Shown piece by piece: positions 9,211 to 29,803 of a stretch of 64,000 nucleotides of DNA. Positions within the stretch are counted from its first letter, which is position 1. Each line of letters starts with the position of its first letter. A program made the translations under genes and the position numbers. The notes beneath the pieces were generated by a model. That model did no database searches. It saw only the letters and a list, made by a program, of their open reading frames with translations, and had not been told where the DNA came from. Source of the DNA: Anaerolineales bacterium (GTDB lineage: Bacteria; Chloroflexota; Anaerolineae; Anaerolineales; UBA4823); the NCBI GenBank assembly GCA_046259385.1, contig JBJYWI010000048.1:464-64463 (forward strand), in the 5' to 3' direction.

Positions 9211-9293
9211 TGGCGATCCGGAATTATTGTGTGTTTTTGATGTGTTATCCGGGCGCCATCAAATAGGAGGAGAGAAAATGTTTGTATTGCCCC

Positions 9294-10700: not shown

Positions 10701-10748
10701 TTGTACTCCTTTTTTTATTTTTTTATTTATCCGGTTTATTTCTCTCAA

Positions 10749-10770
10749 TTGCAAAGGTATTGTACACATT
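10749..10770 (-). promoter_or_regulatory. Two phased 11-bp CarH-type repeats overlapping a TTGCAA -35-like box upstream of the fasciclin gene
   Basis: The minus strand reads AATGTGTACAA TACCTTTGCAA. Both fit nAnnTnn(A/G)CAn. The second differs by 1 nt from the repeat TAACTTTGCAA at 12625. Only two repeats, not three. Confidence 0.3.
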
Positions 10771-10945
10771 TATTTATATTTGTCAAGATTTGGCAAAGGT
10801 TTTTTGGGATTAATCTTTTTTAATCTTTATCCATAAAAAATTTTCTTTAGAGATCTTCGATTGGTAACTAGAAAGAAATTTATGTTTATATTGGCAGTTT
10901 GTTTCCGGTTTTGGGTTTTGTTTTCGTCTTAATCTTAAGCAGATT

Positions 10946-10953
10946 TGTATAAT
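10946..10953 (+). promoter_or_regulatory. Extended -10 element (TGTATAAT) upstream of the (6-4) photolyase-like gene
   Basis: TGTATAAT lies about 105 nt upstream of ATG 11059. No good -35 box. Confidence 0.3.
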
Positions 10954-11058
10954 AGAAAAACTCATTTTCTGGTTTCATCGGATTTCGGCAAAGTAATCAT
11001 TTCTGCCCCTTTTTATTCCTGATTGACGGATCAATCATCTTGGTTTATATATTCTGGG

Positions 11059-12576
11059 ATGACGGTTACAGTTTGGATTCTTGGCGACCAGTTGTGCAAA
11101 AACCATCCGGCGCTCGATTATGCTGTAGAGCAGTACGGCAAAAGCAATATTGTTATTCTGATGCTGGAAAGTGAGAAACGCGCTGGGAGAATTTCTTATC
11201 ACGCAAAAAAACTGGTCTTGCTGTTCAGCGCAATGCGCCATATTGCCGAACATTTGCGAATGCAAGGATTTCGGGTGGATTACCGAATTTCCCCCAGAAC
11301 AGGAGAGGCGATAAATAGCCATCTCAAAGAGTTCCAGCCCGAAGCTGTGATCGCGATGTCAGCTAGCGAGTTTCGCGGTCGAATTTACCAGAAAAACCTG
11401 GAAGATAAATTTGGCATACCTGTAATTCAACTGCCAAATACGCAGTTCTTATCTGGGCGGTTTGACCCATATCCGGATCCCCAGCTAGGAAAGAGATATG
11501 TGCAGGAACAGTTTTACCGCAGAATGCGCCGGAACTTCCAACTGCTGGTCGATGCCGACGGAGAGCCATTTGGAGGAAAGTGGAACTTTGATAAAGACAA
11601 CCGGCGCCGGCTGCCATCGAATCAAAAACCGCCGCGACCGATTGCCTTTTCGCCGGATGGAATTACCATGCAAGTTATGGAAGAAGTTGGGAGGAAGTAT
11701 AGGGTGGTGGGAAATAGCGATGGATTTAATCTTGCCGTTACCCGCGAACAAGCCCGCCAGGCAGCATATGATTTTTTCGATTATCGTTTGCATGATTTTG
11801 GCGCGTACGAGGATGCCATGAGCTGTGAGAATGACATCATTTACCATTCCAAGCTTTCTCCTTATATAAATTTAGGTTTGCTGGACCCTCTCTGGCTAGC
11901 GAGAGAGGCCCAAACGAGGTATAGCGAAGGGATGGCTCCGATCAATTCCGTCGAAGGTTTCATCCGCCAGCTGGTGGGGTGGCGCGAATATATATACTGG
12001 CAGTACTGGCGATTGATGCCAGAAATCTCAGGCAGTAACTTCTGGGGATTTAACCGCGCGCTTCCGGAGTTTTTCTGGAATGGCGAAACTGAAATGAATT
12101 GTTTGAAGCATGTTATCGGAAGAGCTCTACACGACGGCTACACCCACCACATCGAACGCCTGATGGTGGTATGTAATTTTTGTTTGCTCGCGGGAATTGA
12201 CCCGGATACGGTCAACATCTGGTTCCAGAGCGTCTATATTGATGCATATGAGTGGGTTATGTTGCCAAATGTGTATGGAATGGGTCTGTATGCCGATGGG
12301 GGAATGGTGGGGACTAAACCCTATATTTCATCTGCGAATTACCTTAGCAAGATGAGTGATTATTGCCGGGCATGTGTATTTAACCATAAGCACCGTACCG
12401 GTGTAGGTGCCTGTCCTTTCAATTATCTGTACTGGAATTTCATTCTTGAGCATAACCAAATACTCAAGGCTAACCCAAGAATGAGTAGAAGCCTGTTGGG
12501 GTTGAGGCATCTGGATCAAGAAGATAAACGTTTGATTCAAGAAAGCGCGCACCAGTTTCTGAATTCACTTGTTTAG
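11059..12576 (+). CDS. Cryptochrome/photolyase family protein, FeS-BCP / bacterial (6-4) photolyase type (PhrB/CryB-like)
   Basis: Start at the first ATG (M13 of the track ORF, which begins at TTG). Four Cys in the pattern reported for the [4Fe-4S] cluster of PhrB: one in VVCNFCLLAG, then CRAC-x12-C (SDYCRACVFNHKHRTGVGACPF). Confidence 0.8.
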   Translation: MTVTVWILGDQLCKNHPALDYAVEQYGKSNIVILMLESEKRAGRISYHAKKLVLLFSAMRHIAEHLRMQGFRVDYRISPRTGEAINSHLKEFQPEAVIAMSASEFRGRIYQKNLEDKFGIPVIQLPNTQFLSGRFDPYPDPQLGKRYVQEQFYRRMRRNFQLLVDADGEPFGGKWNFDKDNRRRLPSNQKPPRPIAFSPDGITMQVMEEVGRKYRVVGNSDGFNLAVTREQARQAAYDFFDYRLHDFGAYEDAMSCENDIIYHSKLSPYINLGLLDPLWLAREAQTRYSEGMAPINSVEGFIRQLVGWREYIYWQYWRLMPEISGSNFWGFNRALPEFFWNGETEMNCLKHVIGRALHDGYTHHIERLMVVCNFCLLAGIDPDTVNIWFQSVYIDAYEWVMLPNVYGMGLYADGGMVGTKPYISSANYLSKMSDYCRACVFNHKHRTGVGACPFNYLYWNFILEHNQILKANPRMSRSLLGLRHLDQEDKRLIQESAHQFLNSLV

Positions 12577-12624
12577 CTGAAATAAGAACTAAAAGATTAT
12601 TACCCTTGAGTTAGCGAGCCCTTA

Positions 12625-12657
12625 TAACTTTGCAAAACATTGACAAAATATTTACAT
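12625..12657 (+). promoter_or_regulatory. Candidate CarH-type operator O1: three tandem 11-bp direct repeats
   Basis: TAACTTTGCAA / AACATTGACAA / AATATTTACAT at 12625, 12636 and 12647. All three fit nAnnTnn(A/G)CAn in exact 11-bp phase. The middle repeat contains the -35 TTGACA. Confidence 0.6.
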
Positions 12658-12668
12658 TATGATATAAG
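12640..12668 (+). promoter_or_regulatory. Sigma-70-type promoter (TTGACA-17 nt-TGaTATAAG)
   Basis: -35 TTGACA at 12640-12645, 17-nt spacer, TG extension at 12660-12661, -10 TATAAG at 12663-12668. Lies 26 nt upstream of ATG 12695. Confidence 0.55.
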
Positions 12669-12694
12669 ATAAAAAAATATAATGTTTGGATTAA

Positions 12695-13345
12695 ATGGGT
12701 AGATGTATGAAAAAGAATGCATTAATTTTCGGGGCGGCAGGCGCGATAGGGTCAGCAGTTCTTAAAACACTGGATAAAAATAAATGGAAGACCATTGCTG
12801 TCAGTCGTGAAACCAGTCTCATCCAAGATTACGCAGACTATGTATTTGATATATCATTCACAGATGTAAGTCAGATTGCACAAACAGCTTATCTAATCTC
12901 CCAGAAAGTTGAGGGGATTGACCTTTGGGTTTATGCAGCTGGGGATATTCTCTCCGCAAAAATATCCGATATGAGACCTGAAGAATGGGACAGAATTCTG
13001 ATGGCTAATCTCTCGGGAGCATTTTACACACTCCACTTCAGTCTGCCATTGTTAAGTGAAGGCGCTCACATCTTCCTAATTGGCGCGGTTAGTGAAAGAT
13101 TGCGCCTGCCTGGTCTATCCGCTTATGCAGTAGCAAAATCTGGGTTGGAAGCGTTTGCCGGAGTCTTGCGAAAAGAGCAGCGAAAAAAGCTCGTGACAGT
13201 TGTACGTCCCGGGGCTGTCAAGACCACATTTTGGGATAAAGTCCCGATGAAAATCCCACCTGATGCTGCATCACCTGAAAAAGTTGCTCTAAAAATAATT
13301 GCAGCATACCAGGCAGGTCATCAAGGAAACCTTGATCTTGTTTAA
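12695..13345 (+). CDS. Short-chain dehydrogenase/reductase (SDR)
   Basis: 216 aa, GAAGAIGSAV glycine-rich loop, YAVAK catalytic motif. The alternative ATG at 12707 (MKKNALIFG) is equally possible. Confidence 0.8.
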   Translation: MGRCMKKNALIFGAAGAIGSAVLKTLDKNKWKTIAVSRETSLIQDYADYVFDISFTDVSQIAQTAYLISQKVEGIDLWVYAAGDILSAKISDMRPEEWDRILMANLSGAFYTLHFSLPLLSEGAHIFLIGAVSERLRLPGLSAYAVAKSGLEAFAGVLRKEQRKKLVTVVRPGAVKTTFWDKVPMKIPPDAASPEKVALKIIAAYQAGHQGNLDLV

Positions 13346-13414
13346 CCTAAGAACTATTCTTCTTAATATCTTTAGCATCTATTGAAACTCAAATTTTATT
13401 TCTGGAAAACTAAA

Positions 13415-13918
13415 ATGCAAATCACTCAAACTTTTAAAAACATTGAATCCAAATTTGACATCATTGATATTACGATCACAAACTTGATGGCGAAGTACAG
13501 CCTTGTGGTATTGCGGATTAGTATGGGACTAGTTTTTATCTGGTTTGGAGCGCTAAAATTTTTCCCCGGATTAAGTCCTGCAGAAGAGCTAGTTCGAAAC
13601 ACTATATATTTTTTTGACCCCGAATTCGTTCTACCGGTACTTGCTGCATGGGAAGTGACAATCGGTTTAGGATTTTTAACCGGATTATTCACGAACAGGT
13701 TTCAACGCCTAACGATTTTGCTGTTATTTCTACAGATGTTTGGAGTGGCTTTACCCCTGGTGCTACTTCCCGAAGTTTGCTGGAAAAATTTTCCTTTTGT
13801 CTTGACTCTTGAGGGTCAATATATTGTAAAGAACCTTGTGATAATTGGATCCGCCCTGGTTTTAGGCGCAACTGTCCGGGGAGGATGGATTCACCCTGAG
13901 CCCAAAAAGCTTATATAG
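13415..13918 (+). CDS. DoxX-like integral membrane protein
   Basis: Start at ATG (M12 of the track ORF). Four TM helices. [20 protein letters not shown] resembles the DoxX/DUF417 type. Confidence 0.5.
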
Positions 13919-13936
13919 CAGTATTGGAGTTGTTCT

Positions 13937-14509
13937 ATGGCATACATGATCTTGATAGTAGTAATTGGATTGATTGTAATTTTTTCGATTTGGTTATGGC
14001 AGAATTCTCCTGGAAGCAGCGTTTTTGTTGCTACAGAAAAAACTGATCAGTTTCCGGAGGTTTCAGGATATAACCTCGATCGGAAGGAATTTATCTTTCC
14101 CCGGGACTTTGAGGGCGAACACAACTTGATTATGGTTGCCTTCCAACAATACCATCAGAATATTGTGAATACCTGGATACCACATGTGCAGGAATTAGAG
14201 GCAGAAACCCCCGGATTCGTTTATTATGAATTGCCGACAATCAAAGAGATGTCGCTAATAACGCGAACCTTCATTAATGAAGGTATGCGAGCTGGTATCC
14301 CGGACCAGACAGCCAGAGAAAGAACTGTTACTCTCTACATCGATAAAGATAAATTTACTGCCGCTTTGAATATCCCGGATGAAGATGATATATATTTGTT
14401 TCTGGTTGAAGAGGATGGGAGTATCATCTGGCGCGAAAAAGGTGCCTATGATGCAGAAAAAGCCGGCGCTCTTCAAGAGATTTTGCAGGAAAAGCTGAAT
14501 TTAAAATGA
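13937..14509 (+). CDS. Membrane-anchored hypothetical protein (possible cysteine-less thioredoxin-like fold)
   Basis: 190 aa with N-terminal [20 protein letters not shown]. Stop overlaps the next start (ATGA at 14506-14509). Confidence 0.45.
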
Positions 14510-15207
14510 GCACTGAAAATAATGGAAGCTATATTCGTTTGAACAATCTCTGGAAGGAGTTCAATGAAGGAAACCAGAAGCGTGAAGTCCTTCGAGGGAC
14601 TGGATCAGACTTCAAAAAGGGAGAGTTAATCGCAATTCTTGGTAAAAGCGGAAGCGGTAAAAGCACCCTTTTAAACATTATCAGCGGGATCGATATGCCG
14701 GACGAAGGGGATATTACTATCAACGGGTTAACGCTGACCCGTCTCGATGAAAACCGGCGCACTCTATTCCGGCGTGAAAATATTGGATTTATATTCCAAT
14801 TTTTTAACCTTATACCAACTCTTACAGTTGAAGAGAATGTGAGTTTGCCTTTAGAGTTGTTGGGTTCAGATACAAGCCATGCGAAATCTCAAGCTGCCGA
14901 AATATTGGATCGTGTTGGTCTGGTAGATAGACTTAACACATTCCCTGAACGATTGTCTGGCGGTGAACAGCAGCGGGTTGCGATTGCGCGCGCCTTGGTA
15001 CATGATCCCTTGCTTTTGCTGGCTGATGAACCCACAGGCAACCTGGACGAAGAAATTGGCGCGCAAATACTCTCTTTGCTTGACCAGCTTACCCGACAGG
15101 CTGGTAAAAATTTGATTTTGGTCACCCACAATAAAGAAAGTGCTGCATTTGCAGACCGGAAATTCGAACTTATTGGCGGCTGTCTCTATGAGGTAGATTC
15201 AGCTTGA
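14506..15207 (+). CDS. ABC transporter ATP-binding protein (AttE/YbbA/LolD-type)
   Basis: Walker [32 protein letters not shown]. Confidence 0.9.
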
Positions 15208-15229
15208 TACCAGATCCGGTGAACAAACA

Positions 15230-17800
15230 ATGAACAAGATTCCAGCGCTGCAGCCCTCATTGATAAAGATTGGTTGGCGGTACTTGATTCACCATTTCCA
15301 CCAGAGCATATTGATGTTGCTTGGAATTTCATTAGGAGTGGCGATGGTAATTGGTATTGATATTGCCAATCAGAGCGCAAGTCGTGCTTTCGAGTTGAGC
15401 ACCGAAGCCATCACCGGCAGAGCCACCCATCTTATCTCTGGTGGACCAAATGGAATAGCTGAAACTGTGTATTCAGATTTAAAAAAGGGGGGTATTGGAT
15501 TTCCTGCCGCGCCCGTTATCAGCGAATATGTTGTTGCATCCGAATTGGATGGGCAGACATTCCAACTGCTGGGAATTGACCCGTTTGCAGAAACTCCTTT
15601 TCGTGATTATCTGGCTGATCTAGATGGAGTCTCGCATGATTCGCTTATTCCTTTTTTGTCCAGACCCAGCAGCGTTCTGGTATCGCAGAATATAGCAAAT
15701 CGGTACGGACTTTTTCCAGATTCGGAATTTACTGTGGAGTATGCTGGTCGAGTTCACAAACTTGTCATTGCTGGGTTGTTAAGACCTTCTGACAGTCTGA
15801 GCCGACGCGCCCTTGATGGATTGATATTGGCGGATATATCAACCGCACAGGAATTAACCGGAAGGATCGGGCATATTGATAAAATTGACCTTATTCTGGG
15901 GGAAAACAATGCGGAAAATTTTTCCAAACTCGAATATATGCTGCCTTTGGGAGTTCGATTGCTACCTGTGGAATCCAGGAGTGGAACCGTTGAGCAAATA
16001 ACTGCTGCGTTTAAACTTAATCTAACAGCCTTAAGCTTACTTGCTCTTGTGGTGGCGTTGTTTCTGATTTATAACACAATGACATTTTCGGTCGTTCAAC
16101 GCCGGCCGTTATTTGGTACCCTTCGGAGCCTTGGAGTTACCCGGCGTGAGTTGTTCTTAATGGTTGTTTGCGAAGCCCTGGTAATAGGTTTATTGGGCGC
16201 TGGACTCGGTGTTGCCGCAGGTATTTTATTTGGCAGGGGCGCGGTCAATCTTGTGTCCCAAACAATTAATGATCTCTTTTTTGTTAGCACAGTCAGGTCG
16301 GTCCCGGTTGAAATTAGCAGCCTGCTAAAAGGGGCTGTTCTGGGAACACTGGCGACAGTTGCCACTGCTGCGTTTCCAGCCTGGGAAGCAGCCAGTGTAA
16401 CGCCGCGTGCTGCCCTATCCCGCGCTAATCTTGAATCAAAGGCGGAAAAAGTTGTGCGTATCCTGGGTGTGATTGGCGTCCTGGTAATACTAATTGGAGC
16501 GGGTGTGCTGTCCATCTCTCAAAATAGCCTTATTTTTAGCTTTTTGGGAACTTTTATAACAGTTATTGGCTTTGCTTTGATCACTCCCATTTTTACAGGC
16601 TGGATAATGTGGTTAGCTGTTCGATTCACAAGCAGGATGTGGGGTGTACTGGGACGTATGGCTCCCCGTGAAGTAGTAAATTCAATCAGCCGGACATCTG
16701 TAGCGGTTGCCGCCCTGATGATGGCAATTGCGGTTACGGTTGGTTTCAGCCTTATGGTGAGCAGTTTTCGTTTTACAGTTGAAACCTGGATGAGCCAGAT
16801 ACTGCATGGTGATATTTATATCTCTGTTCCTGGAGCGACAGCAAGCCAACCTCTTTATCAGATCGATCCCGAAGTACTTGCTGCTCTTAAGAATTTTTCT
16901 GGAATTGCACGGGTAGATCTTCTTCAGACAGCTGTTGTTAATTCTCCTGATGGACCTATTCAACTTTCCGCCAACAATAACCCGAATGATGGCCTGGAGC
17001 AGGTTTACTTTTCTACAGACTATCCAGCAGATGAGATCTGGAAGGCTGTAGAGAATGGGTCTGTGCTGGTTTCAGAGCCGCTAGCAAACCGGTTAGAATT
17101 GCCAAAGACCGATGGTACTTTATCTCTATACACCAATGATGGCTTGAGGAATTTTCCAATTGCCGGGATTTATTATGATTACGGTTCGAGTCAGGGGAAT
17201 GTGATTTTATCGCTGGAGAATTATAGAAATCTCTGGCAAGATGATCGTATCGCTGCCGCTGCTTTGATACTTGAGCCAGGTGCGGATGTGGAATCAATAA
17301 TTGAGAATTTAAAAATTCAACTAGCCCCAATTCAATCACTGCTTATCCGATCAAACCGAGATTTACGAGAAGAGACTTTGAAGATTTTCGACCGGACTTT
17401 CACAATTGTTAGCGCGTTACAACTGTTAACGGCATCGGTGGCTTTTATCGGGATTATGAGCGCGATGATGTCTCTTCAACTGGATAAACAGCGCCAGCTG
17501 GGCATTCTGAAAGCAATAGGATTAACCGGGGGTCAACTGTGGCGGTTGGTAACTTTAGAAGCGGGTCTAATGGGTACAGTAGCTGGGTTGCTTTCTATGC
17601 CTGCCGGTATCATGCTGGCAATCATACTGGTATATATAATAAACCGGCGTTCTTTTGGCTGGACTTTAAAGCTGCAACTTGAACCTGAACCTTTTGTACT
17701 GGCATTGCTAATTGGGATGGCAGCAGCGGTACTGGCTGGGCTGTACCCTGCATATCGAATTATGCATCGTAATACATCAGAAGCGATCCGATATGAGTAA
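15230..17800 (+). CDS. ABC transporter permease with duplicated FtsX domains (AttF/G-, YbbP-like)
   Basis: 856 aa. Two FtsX-type TM bundles, each preceded by a soluble domain. Confidence 0.82.
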   Translation: MNKIPALQPSLIKIGWRYLIHHFHQSILMLLGISLGVAMVIGIDIANQSASRAFELSTEAITGRATHLISGGPNGIAETVYSDLKKGGIGFPAAPVISEYVVASELDGQTFQLLGIDPFAETPFRDYLADLDGVSHDSLIPFLSRPSSVLVSQNIANRYGLFPDSEFTVEYAGRVHKLVIAGLLRPSDSLSRRALDGLILADISTAQELTGRIGHIDKIDLILGENNAENFSKLEYMLPLGVRLLPVESRSGTVEQITAAFKLNLTALSLLALVVALFLIYNTMTFSVVQRRPLFGTLRSLGVTRRELFLMVVCEALVIGLLGAGLGVAAGILFGRGAVNLVSQTINDLFFVSTVRSVPVEISSLLKGAVLGTLATVATAAFPAWEAASVTPRAALSRANLESKAEKVVRILGVIGVLVILIGAGVLSISQNSLIFSFLGTFITVIGFALITPIFTGWIMWLAVRFTSRMWGVLGRMAPREVVNSISRTSVAVAALMMAIAVTVGFSLMVSSFRFTVETWMSQILHGDIYISVPGATASQPLYQIDPEVLAALKNFSGIARVDLLQTAVVNSPDGPIQLSANNNPNDGLEQVYFSTDYPADEIWKAVENGSVLVSEPLANRLELPKTDGTLSLYTNDGLRNFPIAGIYYDYGSSQGNVILSLENYRNLWQDDRIAAAALILEPGADVESIIENLKIQLAPIQSLLIRSNRDLREETLKIFDRTFTIVSALQLLTASVAFIGIMSAMMSLQLDKQRQLGILKAIGLTGGQLWRLVTLEAGLMGTVAGLLSMPAGIMLAIILVYIINRRSFGWTLKLQLEPEPFVLALLIGMAAAVLAGLYPAYRIMHRNTSEAIRYE

Positions 17801-18959
17801 AAATGGGAATTCGGCTGGGATTGTTTTTATAATATTAATCACGCTCGCTGTTGTTTTGGGCGTGGCGGGCTTACGCCCGCTCGGGGCAAGCCAGGGCATT
17901 CCTGTAATTTTAACAAATTTTGATCCTCCAACTGGCTTCACCCGTGCTGAGGGCTATCGTGAATGGAATTTTCCCGAAGATTATGGACCCCACCTGGATT
18001 TCCAGACTGAATGGTGGTATTACACAGGCAATCTTCAAAGTAAAACTGGAGAACAGTTCGGATACCAGTTGACTTTTTTCAGGAGGGCGCTGCTTCCTAT
18101 TGAAGACCTCCCAGAACGCCAATCCGCATGGGCTGCAAACCAGATTTTTATGGCTCATTTTGCGATAACTGATGTTGAAGCCGGCGCGCATCACGATTTT
18201 GAAAGGTTTGCTCGCGGTGCAGCAGGATTGGCTGGTTCAGAAAACAAATTATTTCGAATATGGTTGGAAAACTGGCGGGTAGAACAGGTGGACGACCAGA
18301 GATTTACACTTCTAGCTTCCCAGGATGATATCAAACTGGATTTGTTTTTCGACAATCTCAAAGGTGTGATTTTTCATGGAGAGCAGGGTTACAGCCAAAA
18401 AGGGCCCGAACCAGGAAATGCCTCTTACTATTACAGCCAGACACGACTGGATACTTCTGGAACAATACAAATCGCCGAAGATGTATACCGTGTAAGCGGG
18501 TTGAGCTGGATGGATCATGAGTTCAGCACCAGCGCGCTCTCTGCCGGTCAGGTCGGTTGGGATTGGTTTTCAATACAGTTAGACGAAGGAAGTGAATTGA
18601 TGGTTTTTCAAATCCGCCGCGCAGATGGAAGTATCGATCTTTATTCAAGCGGCACCTGGATTGCTAAAGATGGGAAGACTCGACAACTCTCGAATGAACA
18701 GTTTGAAATAAAGGTAATAGATACCTGGCGCAGCCCAAATTCCGGGGCAGAATATCCTTCGGAATGGCTGCTGGTAGTGCCTGATCTTGAATTGCAGCTC
18801 GAGATAAAACCCTTGGTTGCAGACCAGGAAATGGATGTTTCATATGCCTACTGGGAAGGAGCGGTAAAAATTGAAGGTAACCAAAGTGATGCGCGAGTTT
18901 CAGGAATTGGTTATGTTGAGTTGACAGGATATGCGGAATCAATTGAAGGACAATTCTAG
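17793..18959 (+). CDS. Lipocalin-like CrtC/AttH family protein (carotenoid 1,2-hydratase superfamily)
   Basis: Start at M28 of the track ORF (ATG overlaps the permease stop; MSKNGNSAGIVFIILITLAVVLG signal/anchor). Motifs EWWYYTGNL, YYYSQTRL, SWMDHEF, GWDWFSIQL. Confidence 0.75.
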   Translation: MSKNGNSAGIVFIILITLAVVLGVAGLRPLGASQGIPVILTNFDPPTGFTRAEGYREWNFPEDYGPHLDFQTEWWYYTGNLQSKTGEQFGYQLTFFRRALLPIEDLPERQSAWAANQIFMAHFAITDVEAGAHHDFERFARGAAGLAGSENKLFRIWLENWRVEQVDDQRFTLLASQDDIKLDLFFDNLKGVIFHGEQGYSQKGPEPGNASYYYSQTRLDTSGTIQIAEDVYRVSGLSWMDHEFSTSALSAGQVGWDWFSIQLDEGSELMVFQIRRADGSIDLYSSGTWIAKDGKTRQLSNEQFEIKVIDTWRSPNSGAEYPSEWLLVVPDLELQLEIKPLVADQEMDVSYAYWEGAVKIEGNQSDARVSGIGYVELTGYAESIEGQF

Positions 18960-20421: not shown

Positions 20422-20956
20422 GGAGCATTTGTTGAGTAAGGGTCGAAATGCGCATAAAGATTACCTGGAAAAAGTCCTATTCCGATCCGTACAGCTTGCA
20501 GCATGATGAATGGTTAGCCAGTGGTTATCTCATTGTAGTACCCCTATGAGGATGGACGTCTTTTTTTACGCAGCTTAAAATCAGCATGATTGTTGAATAA
20601 TTGCACATCGATCATAGCTGTGGTTTCGAATTCACCGTGGATCAGCCTTCTTACTGTGGGAATCGCGGGCAGGCAAAGCCCGAATTGATAAAGCGATCGG
20701 ATTAGAAATCGCGATTATTCTGGAACCCAGCCAGATTTACGCCAGGGAAAACCCAGATCGCATGTCCAAACTGGATCACATAATAAAGGCTGAAAAGGTT
20801 TACCCTTGAGTTTGTGTTAATCAATTAGCCCAGGAAGCTGCACCAATAACGCAAGCATTTATTGGATTTTTTTAACCTTAGCTAGATCATTTACCCAACC
20901 CTTCGAAATTTAAAATACAAACGCCTGCCCCAAAATAAATGTTTAAATCCCCTTCA

Positions 20957-20989
20957 AATTTGCGCAAAAAATGTGCAAATACTTGACAA
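20957..20989 (+). promoter_or_regulatory. Candidate CarH-type operator O2: three tandem 11-bp direct repeats upstream of the carH-like gene
   Basis: AATTTGCGCAA / AAAATGTGCAA / ATACTTGACAA at 20957, 20968 and 20979, in exact 11-bp phase. Fit nAnnTnn(A/G)CAn, with one deviation at position 2 of repeat 3. Repeat 3 contains the -35 TTGACA. Confidence 0.6.
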
Positions 20990-21011
20990 AACAACCTAAG
21001 TAATATAAACT
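20983..21011 (+). promoter_or_regulatory. Sigma-70-type promoter candidate for the carH-like gene
   Basis: TTGACA at 20983-20988. -10 candidates are TAAACT (17-nt spacer) or TATAAA (15-nt spacer). About 50 nt upstream of GTG 21061. Confidence 0.4.
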
Positions 21012-21060
21012 TATTCCGATTTAACTAAATTATCAATGCAAGAGAAAAAAGGTGAATTAA

Positions 21061-22377: not shown

Positions 22378-22472
22378 CCCTGTAATTCTATTTTTGATTT
22401 GATTCCAATACAGATCAAATGGAAATCTGTGATGCGAAATCGAAATATTGAAAAAGGTTTATGGAGGATACG

Positions 22473-23411
22473 ATGATTGTCGTTACCGGAGGTTCGGGTT
22501 ATATCGGTAGCCATATAGTCAAGAGATTAGCCAGCGAGGGGAGACATGTCCGCGCTATGATTCGCAGCCGGCAGCGAACATTACAGGAAAGCCGCCTGGC
22601 TGGATTCGATATAGAACTAGTTGAGGCGGATGTAACTGATGCAGATTCATTAAAACCCGCCTTTACGAAAGCAGATGCGGTCATCCATACTGTTGCAATC
22701 GCGATCGAAAGAGAAGGTACTACATATGAGGAAATAAATTTGATGGGTACAGTGAATGTCCTCCGAGCAGCCCGGGATGCCGGTATCCAGAGATTCATCA
22801 ACTTATCCCAGTTAGGAGCGGATTCGGGGCTTCCGTACCGATTCTTGGCATCGAAAGGCAGAGCCCAGGAGTATGTAGCCCGTTCGGAATTGGATTGGAC
22901 TGCGTTTCGACCATCAGTGATATGGGGTCCGGAAGACGAGTTCGCGAATACATTTGCCAGGTTGATCCTGATAACTCCGATTATCTTTCCGAATGTTGAC
23001 AAAAAAGCCAGGTTTCAGCCGCTCTGGGTTGAAGACCTGGTTACCTGCATCTTCAAGTCGCTGGAAGATAAAAATACATACCGCCAGCAATATGAAATTG
23101 GCGGTCCAGAGATACTGACCCTTGAAGAGATTGAGAGACGCACTCTAGAAGCGATGGGTACTCGAAGAATTATGGTCCCATTTCCGAAACCTCTATTGAA
23201 AACTGCAGTTGGGCTGATTGAAAAAGTGCTGCCTAACCCTCCGGTAACTCAAAGTCTGCTCGAATTGCTTCAAGTTGATAATGTCACCAGCGAAAACACT
23301 GTTTATCAATTCGTTGAAAACCCGAAGGCATTCACGCCTGATGCAATAAAGGGTTATATGCAGGAATTTAAAGCGCGCGATACGCTATCGCAATACCTCG
23401 GGCGATCATAG
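22473..23411 (+). CDS. NAD(P)H-binding atypical SDR (NDUFA9/NmrA-like epimerase family)
   Basis: Start at M5 of the track ORF (GGAGGA SD). MIVVTGGSGYIGSHIV. Confidence 0.8.
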   Translation: MIVVTGGSGYIGSHIVKRLASEGRHVRAMIRSRQRTLQESRLAGFDIELVEADVTDADSLKPAFTKADAVIHTVAIAIEREGTTYEEINLMGTVNVLRAARDAGIQRFINLSQLGADSGLPYRFLASKGRAQEYVARSELDWTAFRPSVIWGPEDEFANTFARLILITPIIFPNVDKKARFQPLWVEDLVTCIFKSLEDKNTYRQQYEIGGPEILTLEEIERRTLEAMGTRRIMVPFPKPLLKTAVGLIEKVLPNPPVTQSLLELLQVDNVTSENTVYQFVENPKAFTPDAIKGYMQEFKARDTLSQYLGRS

Positions 23412-23432
23412 AACTGTGGGGTTTTCATCAAT

Positions 23433-23876
23433 ATGAAGATTTATAAGCACGAATTCAGGGTAACCGCACCCGTAGCTGAGGTGGCGGAGTTTCACGGCGA
23501 CACTCGGGCGCTGAAATTACTCACGCCACCCCCTTTAGTGGTCAAATTCCATGAGGTGGAAAGTTTAGCTGAAGGCTCACTCTCTGATTTTACATTCTGG
23601 TTGGGACCAATCCCTGTACGCTGGAAAGCCATCCATAAAGATGTGGACTTAAATTCGGGCTTTAAGGATATTCAACTTGAAGGGCCTTTCAAATTCTGGG
23701 AGCATACTCATACTTTCTTAGAAAGTGAATCCGATCGAACGATCGTCAGGGATGAGATCAAAGCTGAGTTCAGCAATCATCCTTACCGGAGATTGGTTTG
23801 CCGGATGATGTGGGCAAATCTGCCAGGCCTTTTTGCTTACCGAAAATCGAGAACGAAATTAGCGCTTGAACCATGA
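23433..23876 (+). CDS. SRPBCC (START/cyclase-dehydrase fold) ligand-binding protein
   Basis: 147 aa. Size and pattern are typical of SRPBCC. Stop overlaps the next start (ATGA at 23873-23876). Confidence 0.55.
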   Translation: MKIYKHEFRVTAPVAEVAEFHGDTRALKLLTPPPLVVKFHEVESLAEGSLSDFTFWLGPIPVRWKAIHKDVDLNSGFKDIQLEGPFKFWEHTHTFLESESDRTIVRDEIKAEFSNHPYRRLVCRMMWANLPGLFAYRKSRTKLALEP

Positions 23877-25426
23877 AAAGAGTTGTTGTTATTGGGGCGG
23901 GTTTCGGCGGACTGACAACTGCAGCTGAAATAGCTAGGCAGGGTCTGGATGTGACTGTGCTCGAGGCGCATGTGTATCCTGGAGGCAGCGCTGGAACTTT
24001 TTTCCATCAAGGTTATCTTTTTGATGCCGGGGCAACTTTAGCAGGAGGATTTGCTGAAGGCGCGCCTATGAATATGCTGGGCAGCAGGTTTGATATAGAC
24101 TGGCAGGAAAAATATGTAAAAGAAGCTATGGTTGTCCATCTTCCGGATGGAGAAACGGTGACCCGCTGGACGGATGATGGTCGCTGGCGTGAAGAGAGAA
24201 CTTCTGTTTTTGGAACGGATGCAGAACCATTCTGGAATTGGCAGGAGCGAACAGCTGAAGGTCTATGGGATTTAGCCCAGCGAAATCCTGAATGGCCTCC
24301 ACAGTCGGTAAGAGGTGCTATCAATTTACTCCAGACTGGTTACTCATGGTTGAGTGCCCGCCGGTTGGATAAAAGAGAAATTAACTTAACTGCATATATG
24401 CCATATATGTTCCTGCCGGTTTCTTCAAAAATGAAAAACATCCCCGACCTCCTGCGATTGTATATTAACGGCCAACTTTTAATCTCCGCGCAGGATACAA
24501 GCGATAAGGTCAACGCCCTCTACGGTGCTGCGGCGCTTGACCTGCCCAGAAGAGGTGTGGCGAATGTTCCTGGGGGGATGGGGGGTATGGCTAAAAAACT
24601 TGTCGAAAGGGTAGTGAACTATGGGGGAAAAGTAATATTCAGAAAGGAAGTAATTAGTGTTTCGGATTTTTCTGATAAAAAATTTTTAATCCGCACTAAA
24701 CGGGGTGGGGAATATATTTCGGATGCGGTTGTCTTTAACCAGACTCCCTGGAATGTGGCGAAACTATTGGAGACGCAAGAATACAGGAAGCTGAATACTC
24801 TTGGTGAGCTCCCCAGGGATAACTGGGGCGCCTTTGTTGTTTACGCCGGCATAGATTCCAAAGGTGTACCGGATAATTTCCCCGAGCACCACCAGGTAAT
24901 CCATTCAGAACCTTTAGGTGAAGGAAATAGCATTTTCCTGTCAATTTCTCCAGCCTGGGACAATACCCGTGCTCCGGAAGGAAAACGGTCGATCACGATA
25001 TCAACACACACCAGACTGGATACATGGTGGCGTTTATATCGAAATAGCCGTCCAGAATATGAAGACCGTAAATCGCGCTACATTGAGAGGATTCTCAATG
25101 TGGCTGAGCAGGCATTCCCCGGTATTAAATCATATGCAGAAATGTTACTCCCTGGTTCGCCGGTCACATTCGAACGGTTTACGCGAAGGGAAAAAGGCTG
25201 GGTTGGAGGTTTTCCGCAAACCAGCCTATTCCGTACTTGGGGACCAAAAATTGCTCCCGGAATATGGATAGTTGGCGATTCAATATTCCCCGGACAGTCC
25301 GTGCCAGCAGTTGTGTTAGGAGGATTGCGAGTTGCAGATGGATTGATGGGGGAACTGGCTTATAGAAATCAGAAATCCTGGTTCTACAAACAGGGGAAAA
25401 CCGGTGAGATTCAATGCGCCGGATGA
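23873..25426 (+). CDS. CrtI/phytoene-desaturase-family FAD-dependent oxidoreductase (CrtD/CrtH/UfaD-like)
   Basis: N-terminal dinucleotide fold VVVIGAGFGGLTTAAEIARQGLDVTVLEAHVYPGGSAGTF. 517 aa. C-terminal GDSIFPGQSVPAV. Confidence 0.8.
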   Translation: MKRVVVIGAGFGGLTTAAEIARQGLDVTVLEAHVYPGGSAGTFFHQGYLFDAGATLAGGFAEGAPMNMLGSRFDIDWQEKYVKEAMVVHLPDGETVTRWTDDGRWREERTSVFGTDAEPFWNWQERTAEGLWDLAQRNPEWPPQSVRGAINLLQTGYSWLSARRLDKREINLTAYMPYMFLPVSSKMKNIPDLLRLYINGQLLISAQDTSDKVNALYGAAALDLPRRGVANVPGGMGGMAKKLVERVVNYGGKVIFRKEVISVSDFSDKKFLIRTKRGGEYISDAVVFNQTPWNVAKLLETQEYRKLNTLGELPRDNWGAFVVYAGIDSKGVPDNFPEHHQVIHSEPLGEGNSIFLSISPAWDNTRAPEGKRSITISTHTRLDTWWRLYRNSRPEYEDRKSRYIERILNVAEQAFPGIKSYAEMLLPGSPVTFERFTRREKGWVGGFPQTSLFRTWGPKIAPGIWIVGDSIFPGQSVPAVVLGGLRVADGLMGELAYRNQKSWFYKQGKTGEIQCAG

Positions 25427-25450
25427 GTGAATTCTGAAAGGAGAAGAAAT

Positions 25451-26401
25451 ATGAAAGTAGGTATTGTAGGCGCAGGACAGGTAGGTGCTACGGCAGCCTA
25501 TTCACTTGTAATGCGTGGAATCGGGCGTGAGTTGATCCTGGTTGATATAAATAACCAGCGCGCAAAGGCGGAAGCAGATGATATTCTGCATGCAGTTCCT
25601 TTTGCTCACCCGCTTCAGATTTCAGCTGGCGGGTACTCTGACCTGAGCGGTTGCCGGGTTGTGGTTATAACAGCCGGCGCAGCTCAAAAACAGGGGGAAA
25701 CCCGTTTGCAGCTCCTGGAGCGCAACGCGGCGATCTTCAGTCAGATTATTCCCCGGGTACTTGAGAACGCCTCGGATGCAGTTCTGCTGGTTGCAACCAA
25801 TCCAGTGGATGTCTTAACCCATCTGACAGCCCATATCGCCTCCGGGTACAGTGTCCCCAGCTCACGGGTGATTGGTTCCGGAACCACACTTGATACTGCC
25901 CGTTTCCGGGCACTTCTGGGACAGCACCTTGGTATTGACCCGCCGCATGTCCATGGTTATGTCCTGGGCGAACATGGCGATTCCGAAGTTTTAACCTGGT
26001 CCCTGGTGAAGGTAGGTGGTGTGCCTCTCGCCGAATTCTGCCGCCAGTGGGATATATGCACAGATGAAAAGGTTCAGCAGGATATAACAAATTGGGTTCG
26101 CAATGCTGCATACTCGATTATTGAAGGCAAGGGTAGCACCAATTTTGGGATCGGCAGCGCGCTTACGAGGATTGTGGAGGTGATACTGGGGAACCAAAGG
26201 TCCCTGCTTACAGTTTGCACTCCCATTAAACGGGTGGCAGGGGTAGAAAACGTCACCATATCAATGCCCCATCTTATTGGTGGCAGCGGAATTATGGATA
26301 CTATCCTGCTGCCGCTTGCTTTGAATGACGAGGAAGAGGCAGCATTGCACAGCTCGGCGAAAACGGTAAAAGAGGCGATTGATACTCTTGATTTGAGGTA
26401 G
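25451..26401 (+). CDS. ldh: L-lactate dehydrogenase
   Basis: Start at M9 of the track ORF (AAAGGAGAAG SD). [16 protein letters not shown] signature LGEHGDSEV. Gln at the substrate-specificity position ([11 protein letters not shown]). Confidence 0.85.
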
Positions 26402-26410
26402 GGTTTTTCT

Positions 26411-27838
26411 ATGCAGGCGATTTCTATATGGTGGATCAGGCGTGACCTGAGACTTTCTGATAACCATACTCTTAATGCTGCGATAAATTATTCCGAGCAG
26501 GTTGTTCCGCTGTTTATTATCGACCCCAAGCTGGTTTCTTCAGAACGGGTTGGCTCGAAAAGGTTGGAATTTTTATGGGGAGGTCTGGCTGAGCTGGATA
26601 GATCATTGCGTGAACGTGGCAGCCGTCTGGTTATTCGAAAAGGATCGCCTCTTGAGATATTAACGACTGTGATTGATGAGTGTGGAGCTTCGAAAATATT
26701 CGCGGAGGCTGACTATTCTGCCTATGCCCGCCAACGAGATAAAAAGATCGCTCAAAATCTTCCACTGGTTCTTATGGGTTCGCCGGGAGTGTCAGCACCG
26801 GGTCAGGTGCTTAAGTTGGATGGTTCCCCCTACACTGTGTTTACGCCATATAAAAAAAGATGGTTGTCTGAAGTCCTGCCTTTGGATAGTGATATATTGC
26901 CAGTTCCCGAACAAATCAAATCGCCGGACAAGTTATTTGGCGAGGATATATCAAACCGGTTAAATTCGGCGGATACGATTGGATTTTTACCCGGTGAAAA
27001 TGAAGCTCTCCAGCGGCTTCAGAGATTCACCCGAATTGATAATGGCGCCATTTTTATGTATTCCGCTGAGCGGGATCGTATGGACCTAGAAGGGACTTCC
27101 AAGCTATCTCCTTATCTTAAATTCGGAATGATTTCTGCCAGTCGAGCAGTGAGTAATGCTGTTGAGTTGATTGATTCTGTTCCAGGGGGCACGGCTCAGA
27201 AAAGTGCTGAGACCTGGTTGAACGAGTTGATCTGGCGTGATTTCTACATTTCTATCTTGTATCACTTTCCCTTTGTGGCGGATACGAGCTTTAGAGCTGA
27301 TATGAGGAATATCCGCTGGGTGAATTCCCACTGGGAGTTTAAACAGTGGTGCCAAGGACAGACCGGGTATCCCGTGGTTGATGCCGGGATGCGCCAGCTT
27401 GCCCAAACCGGCTGGATGCACAACCGGGCCAGGATGATCACTGCCTCTTTCCTAGTCAAGGATTTGTTGATCGATTGGCGTTGGGGGGAGGCTTGGTTCA
27501 TGAAGCAACTGATCGATGGTGATCCGGCTGCAAACAACGGAGGGTGGCAGTGGACTGCCGGCACAGGAACGGATGCTGCGCCTTATTTCCGAATTTTTAA
27601 CCCGGTAACCCAGGGAATAAAATTTGATCCTTCGGGTGTCTATATCCGCCGGTGGGTGCCTGAACTTCAAAATGTTCCAGACAAATATATCCATAAGCCC
27701 TGGGAAATGCCGGTGGATACTCAATTATCATGTGGCTGCCGAATTGGAACGGATTATCCTGAGCCGTTAGTCGATCACATCTTCGCACGCCAAAGGGCTC
27801 TTGAAACGTATAAAACTGCCAAAGTGCAAAATAGGTGA
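26411..27838 (+). CDS. phr: Deoxyribodipyrimidine photo-lyase (class I CPD photolyase)
   Basis: 475 aa with TSKLSPYLKFGMIS, WRDFY, GWMHNRARMITASFLVKDL, DGDPAANNGGWQWTAGTGTDAAPYFRIFNP. Confidence 0.92.
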   Translation: MQAISIWWIRRDLRLSDNHTLNAAINYSEQVVPLFIIDPKLVSSERVGSKRLEFLWGGLAELDRSLRERGSRLVIRKGSPLEILTTVIDECGASKIFAEADYSAYARQRDKKIAQNLPLVLMGSPGVSAPGQVLKLDGSPYTVFTPYKKRWLSEVLPLDSDILPVPEQIKSPDKLFGEDISNRLNSADTIGFLPGENEALQRLQRFTRIDNGAIFMYSAERDRMDLEGTSKLSPYLKFGMISASRAVSNAVELIDSVPGGTAQKSAETWLNELIWRDFYISILYHFPFVADTSFRADMRNIRWVNSHWEFKQWCQGQTGYPVVDAGMRQLAQTGWMHNRARMITASFLVKDLLIDWRWGEAWFMKQLIDGDPAANNGGWQWTAGTGTDAAPYFRIFNPVTQGIKFDPSGVYIRRWVPELQNVPDKYIHKPWEMPVDTQLSCGCRIGTDYPEPLVDHIFARQRALETYKTAKVQNR

Positions 27839-27844
27839 TTACTT

Positions 27845-28369
27845 GTGAAAATTTTTAACCGGAAGGATATTACTGAAAAGAAGACCGAAACTCACTTAAA
27901 CAACCATGCCCCCGATTTTTCCGCGAAGGATATTGATGGAAATATGATAGCCCTTTCACAATTCCGGGATAAGAAAAATGTATTCCTGGTATTTAATCGA
28001 GGCTTTACATGACCTTACTGCCGAAGGCATATGGCGCAGTTGCGCCGTGATTACGAAAAGTTTAAAGAAAGGGGAGTCGAGGTCATTATAGTTGGTCCGG
28101 AAGAAGAAGAGGTTTTCAGATACCATTGGAAAAAGGGTGAATATCCATTTGTTGGAATCGCTGATCCAGACCATAAAATTGCGGATTTATACAACCAACA
28201 GGTCAAAATATTAAAAATGGGCCGGATGCCGGCTCAAGTAATTATTGATAAGGATGGTTTCATCAGATCCCAACATCACGGAGTTTCGATGCGTGACATC
28301 CTTGAAAATACAACTGTTTTGAATCTATTTGACAAAATTAACTCAGAGAATGAGATCATTAATTATTAA
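27845..28369 (+). CDS. Peroxiredoxin-like/redoxin (AhpC-TSA fold) selenoprotein candidate, UxxC active site (TGA 28010-28012 read as Sec)
   Basis: GTG 27845 lies 6 nt after an AGGTGA SD. Hand translation: VKIFNRKDITEKKTETHLNNHAPDFSAKDIDGNMIALSQFRDKKNVFLVFNRGFT-U-PYCRRHMAQLRRDYEKFKERGVEVIIVGPE... The TGA occupies the first Cys of the redoxin CxxC motif. The track lists only the 3' part (28031..28369). Confidence 0.7.
28031..28048 (+). promoter_or_regulatory. SECIS-like hairpin 18 nt downstream of the in-frame UGA
   Basis: AUGGCGC-AGUU-GCGCCGU: 7-bp stem (one G-U pair) and a 4-nt loop containing GU. A smaller UGCC-GAA-GGCA hairpin precedes it. Confidence 0.5.
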
Positions 28370-28433
28370 AAGCGTGAAAAATTTCCGAGAGGTTAAATCC
28401 AAAAATCTGAACTGATAACCTTTCCTGATTTTA

Positions 28434-28907
28434 TTGATAGGGAATTCTGTGAGCGAACTAAGAACAGAGAAGTTGCATGTTGAGTTGTTGGATGGCATAG
28501 GAGAAGATGGACCAGTAATGCCAAGAAGGTATACTCTGACCCATTCAGACAGAACAGGGGATTTATTTCTCAGTATTGGACCAGATTACAATCATCCTCA
28601 GATATCAGGTTTATATACTCGATTGATGCGTGATGAGGTGCTGGCTGAATGGGTTCTTGATGGAAATGATGTGCAATTAATCATTCATTGTCATGTAAGC
28701 GGAGGCTTTGCATTTGGCCCTGCCAGCTGGCGGATGTCTATATTCAGGCAGCATTTACCGATGGTGATTACGGCTTTTAAATTCGGTGATTCGGATTTAT
28801 TTGCTGCACATCAGGAATTAAGCAAATCGAGAGTTTCCATCCATTTCCACTCGGTTCAGGACAGGTATAACATCGTTGAAGATTGGGGATCGATAGACAA
28901 CTTTTAG
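28434..28907 (+). CDS. Stay-Green (SGR) family protein, Mg-dechelatase homolog
   Basis: PRRYTLTHSDRTGDLFLSIG ... RLMRDEVLAEWV ... LIIHCHVSGGFAFG ... FRQHLPMVITAF parallels plant SGR (PRTYTLTHSDIT..., YRDEVVAEW, HVHCHISGG, ELPVVLKAF) as I recall it. The start (TTG 28434 or GTG 28449) is uncertain. Confidence 0.75.
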   Translation: MIGNSVSELRTEKLHVELLDGIGEDGPVMPRRYTLTHSDRTGDLFLSIGPDYNHPQISGLYTRLMRDEVLAEWVLDGNDVQLIIHCHVSGGFAFGPASWRMSIFRQHLPMVITAFKFGDSDLFAAHQELSKSRVSIHFHSVQDRYNIVEDWGSIDNF

Positions 28908-28954
28908 ATTGATTAAGCCGCAATTGAGGTATTGAATCTTTCAGGTTTATAGTA

Positions 28955-29803
28955 ATGTTGAAGAATAGAGTGGCGATTATCACCGGTGGCACCCGAGGTC
29001 TTGGGTTTGGAATTGCAAAGGCTTTTGTTCAGGCGGGAGCGAAAGTATTTGTAGCTTCAAGGTCAGCTGATTCGGTCGAGCAATCTATTTCTGTGTTGAG
29101 ATCGATGGGTGGGGAAGTAGATGGAAAGGTATGCGATGTTGGTTCACTGAGTGATGTTGAAGATATATCTCTTAGAGCAGTTAAACAACTTGGAAAAATC
29201 GATATCTGGGTAAATAATGCCGGTATATCCGCGCCGTATGGTCCGACCATCCATATACCTTATGAAGAGATTCTTAAGGTAATCCAAACTAACATCCTCG
29301 GCACATATCACGGGTCGCTGGTTGCAATGCGGTATTTCCTGAAACAGGGTCAGGGTAAACTCATTAATGTTTCCGGGAGGGGAGATAAAGGACCGGTACC
29401 GCTTCAGAATGCTTATGCTTCCTCTAAAAGCTGGGTTCATAGTTTCACATTGGCGCTGGCGGATGAGTATAAAAACAGCGGGGTTGGTGTTTATTTGTTC
29501 AGACCTGGAATCGTGGATACGGATATGTTGAGAAAAGTGGAAGTGATTGAAGGTTATCAGTCTCGGATTGAACCATTAAAAACGGTAATTCGGATGTGGG
29601 GTAATAAACCCGAGGTTCCTGCCATGAAAGCAGTCTGGCTGGCTTCACATGCAACGGATGGGAAAACCGGTCTTGTGGTAAATGTTTTCAACCCTCGGCT
29701 TATGTTTTGGGGATTGTTTCGAGAGACACTTGGAAGAATCTTGCGGCGTGACATTGAGCAAATTGAGATTGCGGTAAATACAATAGAGCCGGATATTAAT
29801 TAG
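28955..29803 (+). CDS. Classical SDR with resemblance to chlorophyll b reductase NOL/NYC1
   Basis: ITGGTRGLGFGIA, IDIWVNNAG, VSGRGDKGPVPLQNAYASSKSWVHSFT, RPGIVDTDML. Recalled NOL: IDIWINNAG, DGAGSDGRPTPRFAAYGATKRSVVHLT, SPGMVTTDLL. The SDR call is firm; the NOL likeness is tentative. Confidence 0.8.
   Translation: MLKNRVAIITGGTRGLGFGIAKAFVQAGAKVFVASRSADSVEQSISVLRSMGGEVDGKVCDVGSLSDVEDISLRAVKQLGKIDIWVNNAGISAPYGPTIHIPYEEILKVIQTNILGTYHGSLVAMRYFLKQGQGKLINVSGRGDKGPVPLQNAYASSKSWVHSFTLALADEYKNSGVGVYLFRPGIVDTDMLRKVEVIEGYQSRIEPLKTVIRMWGNKPEVPAMKAVWLASHATDGKTGLVVNVFNPRLMFWGLFRETLGRILRRDIEQIEIAVNTIEPDIN

Follow-up and report, generated by a model that had tools for sequence, protein, structure and literature searches.

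An uncultured Anaerolineae bacterium carries, within a 64,000-nt stretch of contig JBJYWI010000048.1 (hereafter the window), a gene for a cobalamin-binding MerR-type regulator related to the B12 photoreceptor CarH, together with two long same-strand gene arrays and predicted operators of tandem 11-bp repeats ahead of each array and ahead of a fasciclin-domain lipoprotein gene on the opposite strand (Table 1). Genes were called from an open reading frame (ORF) map and from Pfam and NCBIfam family scans of the window proteins, and the result reproduced, bar individual labels, the gene list of a first-pass annotation made earlier from the sequence alone. Array 1 extends over 12695-20421 on the + strand with spacers of 36-69, 18, -4, 22, -8 and -29 nt, and array 2 follows the regulator gene with recomputed spacers of 83, 21, -4, 0, 9, 6, 64 and 47 nt, in agreement with the tight packing described in that annotation.

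Table 1 Window positions of the genes and predicted operators in and beside the two arrays, in order of position.
Feature	Position	Strand	Evidence or remark
GTP cyclohydrolase I	7539-8192	-	Pfam
DegV	8232-9068	-	Co-directional with the fasciclin gene, which lies upstream
Fasciclin-domain lipoprotein, three FAS1 repeats	9294-10700	-	Pfam Fasciclin, E 2.5e-121
Third operator and promoter, fasciclin gene	10736-10811	-	Matrix 23.0 bits at 10736-10769
FeS-BCP/(6-4) photolyase-type gene	11059-12576	+	Pfam DPRP; PDB matches
Operator of array 1	12626-12659	+	Matrix 28.2 bits; three 11-bp direct repeats
Array 1, SDR	12695-13345	+	Pfam
Array 1, DoxX-like	13415-13918	+	Pfam
Array 1, 190-aa protein without family match	13937-14509	+	
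Array 1, ABC ATPase	14506-15207	+	Pfam
Array 1, duplicated FtsX/MacB-type permease, 856 aa	15230-17800	+	Pfam
Array 1, AttH/CrtC-type double lipocalin	17793-18959	+	Pfam
Array 1, SDR-DUF2867 fusion	18931-20421	+	Pfam
Operator of regulator gene and array 2	20958-20991	+	Matrix 26.6 bits
Regulator, 438 aa	21061-22377	+	Pfam, TtCarH alignment, AlphaFold (AF2) model
Array 2, extended NAD(P)-binding SDR	22461-23411	+	Family scans
Array 2, SRPBCC-family 147-aa protein	23433-23876	+	Family-wise Pfam
Array 2, CrtD/CRTISO-like FAD oxidoreductase	23873-25426	+	TIGR02733, 249 bits, under cut-off
Array 2, L-lactate dehydrogenase (LDH)	25427-26401	+	TIGR01771, over cut-off
Array 2, class I CPD photolyase	26411-27838	+	Family scans
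Array 2, AhpC/TSA-fold UxxC selenoprotein	27845-28369	+	Reading frame, Pfam, NCBIfam
Array 2, STAY-GREEN (Mg-dechelatase) homolog	28434-28907	+	Pfam Staygreen (PF12638), E 3.3e-46
Array 2, classical SDR (last gene)	28955-29803	+	Generic SDR models
VIT-family gene (Fe/Mn export type)	30270-30866	+	Pfam

The regulator comprises a MerR helix-turn-helix (HTH) domain, a four-helix bundle with a Rossmann B12-binding domain, and a C-terminal five-helix photoglobin-like domain (residues ~300-438), with Pfam matches to MerR_1 (2.2e-11), B12-binding_2 (3.6e-11) and B12-binding (3.5e-8) and a match to the NCBIfam CarH model NF052513 (E 1.8e-39). The first-pass description of the gene as CarH-like was borne out by these domains and by alignment with TtCarH (5c8d, E 1.8e-27) over the DNA-binding and B12 domains, in which the photoreceptor signature W-x9-EH and the axial histidine are kept: W161, E171, H172 and H208 correspond to TtCarH W131, E141, H142 and H177, and all four are unchanged throughout an alignment of 22 members of the regulator subfamily. 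This subfamily is large, its members are ~440 aa long, and its named relatives are Chloroflexota. The ~130 C-terminal residues are common to the subfamily and lacking in TtCarH. In the AF2 model (pLDDT 86) they form five helices, and a Foldseek comparison superposed the model on the whole chain of a photocobilin, AbPcob (8j2y_A; TMq 0.65, TMt 0.85, rmsd 3.2, 333 columns), with TM values by target of 0.77-0.79 for SasPcob (8j2w/x) versus 0.56-0.67 for full-length TtCarH chains. On this model the regulator is more than a minimal CarH: a MerR-HTH, B12 and photoglobin-like protein of photocobilin-like architecture.

Photocobilins are B12 photoreceptors whose additional globin-like domain binds biliverdin (Zhang et al. 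2024, PMC10979010). The characterised ones (SasPcob, 8J2W/8J2X; AbPcob, 8J2Y), like the regulator, have a helical globin-like domain behind a B12 domain of the CarH type, but stand alone or are fused to diguanylate cyclases and do not bind DNA, whereas the regulator is fused to MerR. The combination of MerR-HTH, B12 and photoglobin domains has been catalogued (Schneider et al. 2021), with none of the surveyed photoglobin loci studied experimentally (PMC8717448), and in the literature located no description of an operator or regulon was found for the MerR-fused form. Bilin contacts include Asp270 and Trp296 in SasPcob, and photoglobins have conserved Cys, Asp and Leu residues (PMC10979010, PMC8717448). 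Unlike these, the C-terminal domain of the regulator has no Cys, and the biliverdin-binding Asp is not clearly conserved. It also lacks a Pfam match, and its profile found 8j2y_A in the matching region with a weak E of 2.1; in that alignment the invariant W391 stands opposite AbPcob W289, and H361 opposite AbPcob H265. H361 may be the counterpart of the His that takes the place of the Asp in AbPcob.

Published CarH operators consist of three or four tandem copies of nnnnTnnACAn placed over the -35 or -10 box (PMC9304148), a design to which the three sites of the window conform. Sites were scored with a 34-nt matrix (consensus ATATGTACAAAATCTGTACAAAATCTTTACAATG, three 11-bp repeats), which was seeded with the pattern of the window's own sites and refined from the upstream regions of carH-like genes; the regulator alignment had been used to scan genomes and had returned 80 Chloroflexota loci with identities of at most 49%. 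The two promoter-overlapping triple repeats reported by the first-pass annotation are both real and lie where it had placed them. The first reads TTTGCA(12629)-N5-TTGACA(12640)-N5-TTTACA(12651), its middle repeat TTGACA forming the -35 box of array 1, while the second reads TGCGCA(20961)-N5-TGTGCA(20972)-N5-TTGACA(20983), its third repeat being the -35 box (20983-88) of the carH promoter ahead of a -10 TAAACT (21006-11). They are the sole occurrences of the pattern TNNRCA-N5 x3 in the 64 kb, versus 0.10 expected, and the position of the second before the regulator gene suggests autoregulation.

The matrix extended this picture with a third operator, in which TGTACA and TTTGCA repeats 11 bp apart lie over the -10 box of the fasciclin promoter (-35 TTGACA at 10786-10781, 16 nt, -10 TACAAT at 10764-10759), the best sigma-70-like match of the 20-kb region (11/12). 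The mechanically called fasciclin ORF (9294-10769, - strand) opens at an ATG at 10769, inside this operator, and the start is more likely the GTG at 10700, which would give a lipoprotein-type signal peptide. Throughout, the window promoters have 16-17-nt spacers with repeats over the -35 or -10 box, a geometry that fits a CarH repressor and differs from that of the classical MerR activators.

Statistically, the window contains three matches of at least 23 bits versus 0.005 expected from a first-order Markov simulation, and the array 1 and fasciclin sites lay outside the training set of the matrix. A matrix site above 8 bits was present upstream of 63 of 81 carH-like genes, with a median operator-to-gene distance of 63 nt among homologs of at least 40% identity, and the phased TnnACA pattern reached at least 10/12 in most carH upstream loci versus 2e-4 per position overall. 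Sites of at least 17 bits numbered 116 in 1.9 Mb. In addition, the 13-mer TTACCCTTGAGTT occurs upstream of both + strand operators, at ~12603-12615 and 20803-20815; it was considered as a functional element and set aside, as it is not conserved in the relative L081, and is treated as chance or unexplained.

The first-pass annotation had proposed that, if the association is real, these genes should accompany carH-like genes and the repeat motif in relatives as well, and this comparison came out in its favour. In the closest relative (L081/L166; L numbers denote the retrieved loci), whose regulator is 69% identical and whose locus lies on a 1.5-Mb contig, both arrays are retained: GTP cyclohydrolase I, DegV and fasciclin genes on the minus strand are followed by the FeS-photolyase gene, array 1, carH, and array 2 as far as a split gene for the selenocysteine (Sec) redox protein, with the STAY-GREEN (SGR) gene and the last SDR absent from the operon. 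In alignments of the spacers the operators stand out as conserved islands amid diverged sequence, the carH operator being near-identical in the window and L081 over the stretch that runs from its first repeat to the -35 box, and the array 1 operator being conserved in L081 and L166. Matrix matches occur in L166 in all three places (23.9 and 21.4 bits before the fasciclin homolog, 22.7 and 25.1 bits at the others), and a 25-bit operator precedes the fasciclin homolog of L014.

More distant genomes contain the same gene families and the same operator in shuffled order. Using tblastn, photolyase genes were found near carH-like genes at 30 of 80 loci, followed by the Sec protein (10), the last-SDR type (10), the CrtD-like protein (9) and SRPBCC (8), and many of these families also occur behind the operator elsewhere, namely photolyase (25/37), selenoprotein (11/14), CrtD-like (10/12), SRPBCC (7/8) and SDR-DUF2867 (7/8). 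Directly behind matrix sites there are also divergent phytoene synthase and CrtI-type desaturase genes (crtB/crtI; ~11 loci), genes for heliorhodopsin, TspO, UvrC and DegV and, in a metagenome-assembled genome (MAG) of Caldilineaceae, one for a fasciclin lipoprotein. An operator precedes the AttH/ABC array in L166 and L168, and in L167 the array lies within the carH operon. Three operator-led operons occur within ~35 kb of L167/L170 (GCA_054920995.1, JBUDRX010000003.1), which by its predicted genes is a second supercluster with a differing gene order. Gene identities, operator anatomy and the conservation of both the operators and the regulon across genomes are matters of observation.

Two further features of these genomes were recorded. 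Heliorhodopsin genes (PF18761, E 2e-104) lie behind CarH-type operators at L046:9117-9908 and in L062 (~9100-9900), in both cases with the operator ~1 kb ahead of the regulator gene; the family also occurs near SGR on four contigs. Locus L034 (JBLMZU010000741.1), which is labelled 'Bacteroidota bacterium', has a regulator, operator and photolyase typical of Chloroflexota, and its label is probably a MAG binning error.

The STAY-GREEN homolog of array 2, recognised as such in the first-pass annotation, can be compared with AbSGR-h of Anaerolineae bacterium SM23_63, a Staygreen-family enzyme from the same phylum. Residues D39, D67, R31, Y33, T34 and D119 of the window protein are invariant in 20 homologs and correspond, respectively, to D34, D62, R26, Y28, T29 and D114 of AbSGR-h, all six of which were found necessary (PMC8531759), so that the predicted catalytic residues are kept. 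AbSGR-h has been studied as an isolated enzyme (Obata 2019; Dey 2021, PMC8531759); in the literature located no genomic or regulatory context was found for it, and its own locus (KPK94580) was not among the cluster accessions. A metagenome scan with an SGR alignment returned 80 loci, in which the commonest neighbours of SGR were MFS transporters (15 loci), photolyases (9), SDR-DUF2867 (9) and the Sec protein (8). These loci contain ten matrix matches of at least 20 bits in 535 kb, nine of them on the SGR strand, and SGR is operator-led on 11 independent contigs (L087, L089, L100, L112, L113, L138, L151, L156, L169, L170 and the window). For example, the order (op, operator) is op-carH-SDR-SRPBCC-CrtD-like-LDH-PHR-SGR-SDR-SDR_DUF2867 in L089, op-carH ... 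PHR-SelPrx-SGR in L113, op-SelPrx-x-SGR in L151, op-SDR-x-SGR in L156 and op-SulP-carbonic anhydrase-SelPrx-DegV-SGR in L170, while in L087, L112 and L169 the operator lies ~50-100 nt upstream of SGR, which is followed by SDR_DUF2867. The pair of SGR and last SDR is kept in L088, L089 and L090 and absent in L081, a distribution that marks it as a movable module, located at the operon's 3' end. In L138 and L100 the order is op-M50/CBS protease ... MFS ... SGR; the M50 (site-2 protease type) and CBS protein is first behind the operator (L138:1834-2949, L100:2188-3417), MFS transporters come next, and the protease may form a second signalling layer.

The selenoprotein proposed in the first-pass annotation is likewise indicated by comparison. 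Its frame reads F-T-U-P-Y-C with the TGA at 28010-28012, a TGA occupies that position in 21 of 21 homologs from the fetched loci, and the TGA is followed in all 21 by ATGGCGCAGTTGCGCC, conserved at the nucleotide level. This element folds into a hairpin resembling a selenocysteine insertion sequence (SECIS) at 28030-28049, with a loop that begins 28 nt after the UGA, a position and loop that fit published criteria for the bacterial SECIS. Of the NCBIfam models, the two that came nearest, SelL-related and ResA-like, scored under their cut-offs.

Immediately upstream of array 1, the (6-4) photolyase-type gene identified in the first-pass annotation encodes a full-length relative of PhrB (4dja, E 6e-122; 8ijy, E 3.5e-125; 3zxs, E 3.5e-107) in which the Fe-S cysteines (Cys and C-x2-C-x12-C) are aligned, as expected of a member of the FeS-BCP group (PhrB/CryB). 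Some labels fared less well. The 190-aa protein of array 1 had no Pfam or NCBIfam match, so the label 'Trx-like' was not verified, and neither was 'NOL-like' for the last SDR, to which only generic SDR models of Pfam and NCBIfam match. 'SRPBCC' holds for the family of the 147-aa protein, of which 6 of 11 members match PF03364 (Polyketide_cyc; best E 2e-10) and whose profile matches the N-terminal domain of 3oh8 (E 1.8e-8), but not for the window copy alone, which has no family match. The idea that this family and DUF2867 are one and the same domain was dropped, as they showed no similarity (hhalign probability 0.6%), and a single-sequence AF2 model of the 147-aa protein was unusable (pLDDT 40).

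Together, these features make it quite probable that the locus is a light-responsive regulon under one autoregulated CarH-type repressor. By analogy with TtCarH and BmCarH, an oligomer of the regulator bound to adenosylcobalamin (AdoCbl) would occupy the three tandem 11-bp repeats in the dark and, by covering the -35 box at array 1 and at the carH array and the -10 box at the fasciclin gene, would block RNA polymerase; light would cleave the Co-C bond, the oligomer would dissociate and all three promoters would fire. More speculatively, the C-terminal globin-like domain may bind a bilin and so widen the colour range. The cargo of ~20 DNA-repair, redox, lipid and pigment genes fits protection from light damage, with two photolyases (one without a visible operator), a Sec-containing thiol oxidoreductase, and a MacB-type exporter with an AttH lipocalin. 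The SRPBCC, SDR and CrtD-like enzymes probably have lipophilic isoprenoids or pigments as substrates, and the Mg-dechelatase homolog could process chlorophyll-type photosensitisers. The light-protection regulon envisaged in the first-pass annotation is supported by the operators and by the gene families shared across genomes, whereas repression, the light response itself, cofactors and substrates are what we infer.

Several points weigh against this interpretation. Part of the matrix enrichment is circular, given the window-derived seed and the training on carH upstream regions. The regulator scored 135.7 bits with NF052513, far under the equivalog cut-off of 400, and is a relative and not an equivalog, and its additional C-terminal domain could alter oligomerisation or signal logic. 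Co-transcription of the 7-9 genes per array is assumed from spacing only, because the matrix scan of the window found no operator inside the arrays. The FeS-photolyase gene has no + strand matrix match of at least 6 bits upstream in the window; in L166 a + strand match of 17.5 bits lies in the shared spacer. The window ORFs scanned, to ~52 kb, include no B12, bilin or selenocysteine machinery. Finally, of 20 SGR loci whose upstream sequence extends over at least 6 kb, 10 had a gene or site of the light cluster, so that the link between SGR and the light cluster is, from these contigs, recurrent and not universal.

The atypical regulator raises the question of whether the signal is light acting on a simple green/blue CarH switch at all. 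A B12- or bilin-dependent sensor of cobalamin, redox state or red light would be in keeping with the subfamily-wide conservation of the photoglobin-like domain, the closer resemblance of the model to photocobilins than to CarH, the red-light response of photocobilins via biliverdin (PMC10979010) and the failure to reach the CarH equivalog cut-off. We regard it as unlikely, given that the light-specific W-x9-EH signature is invariant, that the residue aligned with the key bilin-binding Asp seems to be His or to vary, in a domain whose sequence match to the bilin domain is not significant (E 2.1), and that the cargo, mostly photolyases, carotenoid genes, heliorhodopsin and TspO, points to light.

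Control by light might also be confined to the regulator and its nearest neighbours, with SGR, the last SDR, the selenoprotein and the AttH/ABC genes served by promoters of their own. The spacers of 83 nt after carH, 64 nt before SGR and 47 nt before the last SDR would leave room for this reading, as would the SGR-free operon of the closest relative and an extra weak site (15 bits) before the selenoprotein gene in L113. Yet no promoter- or terminator-like signal above chance was found inside the arrays, and SGR, the selenoprotein, SDR-DUF2867 and AttH/ABC each lie directly behind an operator of their own elsewhere (L087, L112, L169, L151, L168, L170), which makes them regulon members wherever they are located; such restricted control is accordingly judged quite unlikely. 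It is very improbable that the repeats are no more than strong AT-rich sigma-70 promoters and that the genes lie together by chance. Each site does contain a perfect TTGACA and the matrix is A/T-rich, but the TnnACA triplets with their 11-bp phasing are kept in genomes with regulators of 33-69% identity, the matches in the 1.9 Mb are confined to this gene set, their number in the window far exceeds expectation, and those in the SGR loci lie almost all on the SGR strand.

Beyond the arrays, membership of the regulon is less clear. The VIT-family gene possibly belongs to it: a 466-nt gap without an operator precedes it, and in L089 the corresponding cluster is likewise followed by a homolog of 80% identity. 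Given the 225-nt gap that separates them from the fasciclin gene, DegV and GTP cyclohydrolase I count as no more than possible members; their order with the fasciclin gene recurs in L166, and DegV is preceded by an operator of its own in L113 and L017 and lies inside an operator-led operon in L170. It is conceivable that the pair would provide a light-induced supply of folate or pterin for photolyase antennae. Farther along the fasciclin strand, a second pair of ABC ATPase and FtsX/MacB-type permease genes lies at 4564-6527 (- strand), for which no operator was found. The 640-nt gap between array 1 and the carH operator (20422-21060) contains no convincing ORF and no riboswitch, a single tRNA being the sole match in an Rfam scan of the whole window. 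At this position a PNPOx-like gene is present in L081/L166, together with small minus-strand ORFs in two tandem pairs (32/33 and 58 aa), so that the gap is probably a deletion in the window. Twenty of the larger ORFs outside the finding (to ~52 kb) were scanned and are all housekeeping, with no carotenoid, heme oxygenase, cobalamin or selenocysteine genes among them.

The regulatory principle is already known. Like the class I CarH/LitR systems of T. thermophilus, B. megaterium and M. xanthus, the locus combines a MerR domain and an AdoCbl domain with W-x9-EH and the axial His, a tandem 11-bp nnnnTnnACAn operator over the -35 or -10 box, autoregulation, linkage to photolyase and, in sister genomes, linkage to crtB/crtI. 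Unlike them, it has a regulator with an extra conserved C-terminal five-helix domain of ~130 aa, a far larger regulon, no carotenoid backbone genes in the window, and a cargo that includes SGR, the selenoprotein, the AttH/MacB-type exporter, the fasciclin lipoprotein and LDH. Similarly, the PF07143 and PF17186 double lipocalin with an adjacent ABC ATPase and FtsX-type permease resembles Agrobacterium AttEFGH and the carotenoid 1,2-hydratase CrtC, from which it differs in its 856-aa duplicated MacB/ADOP-like permease, and the predicted link of AttH/ABC to a light operator is new. What else appears to be new is the predicted operator and regulon of this regulator subtype, the third operator, and the consistency with which SGR homologs, a redox protein that always has Sec, and the AttH exporter are recruited into a light regulon. 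The first-pass annotation had called a regulon with SGR, a selenoprotein and an Att-type exporter undescribed, and the SGR link and the subtype regulon indeed appear to be so: among the papers listed by a literature search joining CarH and staygreen, none mentioned staygreen, and a 2026 preprint on prokaryotic chlorophyll degradation is without operon or light analysis.

For the MerR-fused photoglobin class, the locus provides a predicted operator and regulon and three ready-made DNA probes, and if the reading is true, a red-extended DNA-binding B12 photoswitch would be of interest for optogenetic tools. It also offers a light-response handle for SDR-DUF2867, the SRPBCC 147-aa family, the AttH/MacB-type exporter, the fasciclin lipoprotein and the always-Sec UxxC protein. 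What STAY-GREEN homologs do physiologically in bacteria is acknowledged in the literature to be an open question (PMC8531759), and the repeated occurrence of SGR behind a light-sensor operator near photolyases makes that question directly testable. Tentatively, and as a possibility that we hold to be rather doubtful, MerR-fused photocobilin-type regulators, with B12 and possibly a bilin, may run a Chloroflexota-wide light regulon in which SGR would be a light-induced remover of Mg from chlorophyll-type photosensitisers that non-phototrophic Anaerolineae pick up in mats and sediments, its products would be handled by SRPBCC/SDR proteins and by MFS or AttH-ABC exporters, and the ancestor of plant SGR would have been a photoprotective detoxifier.

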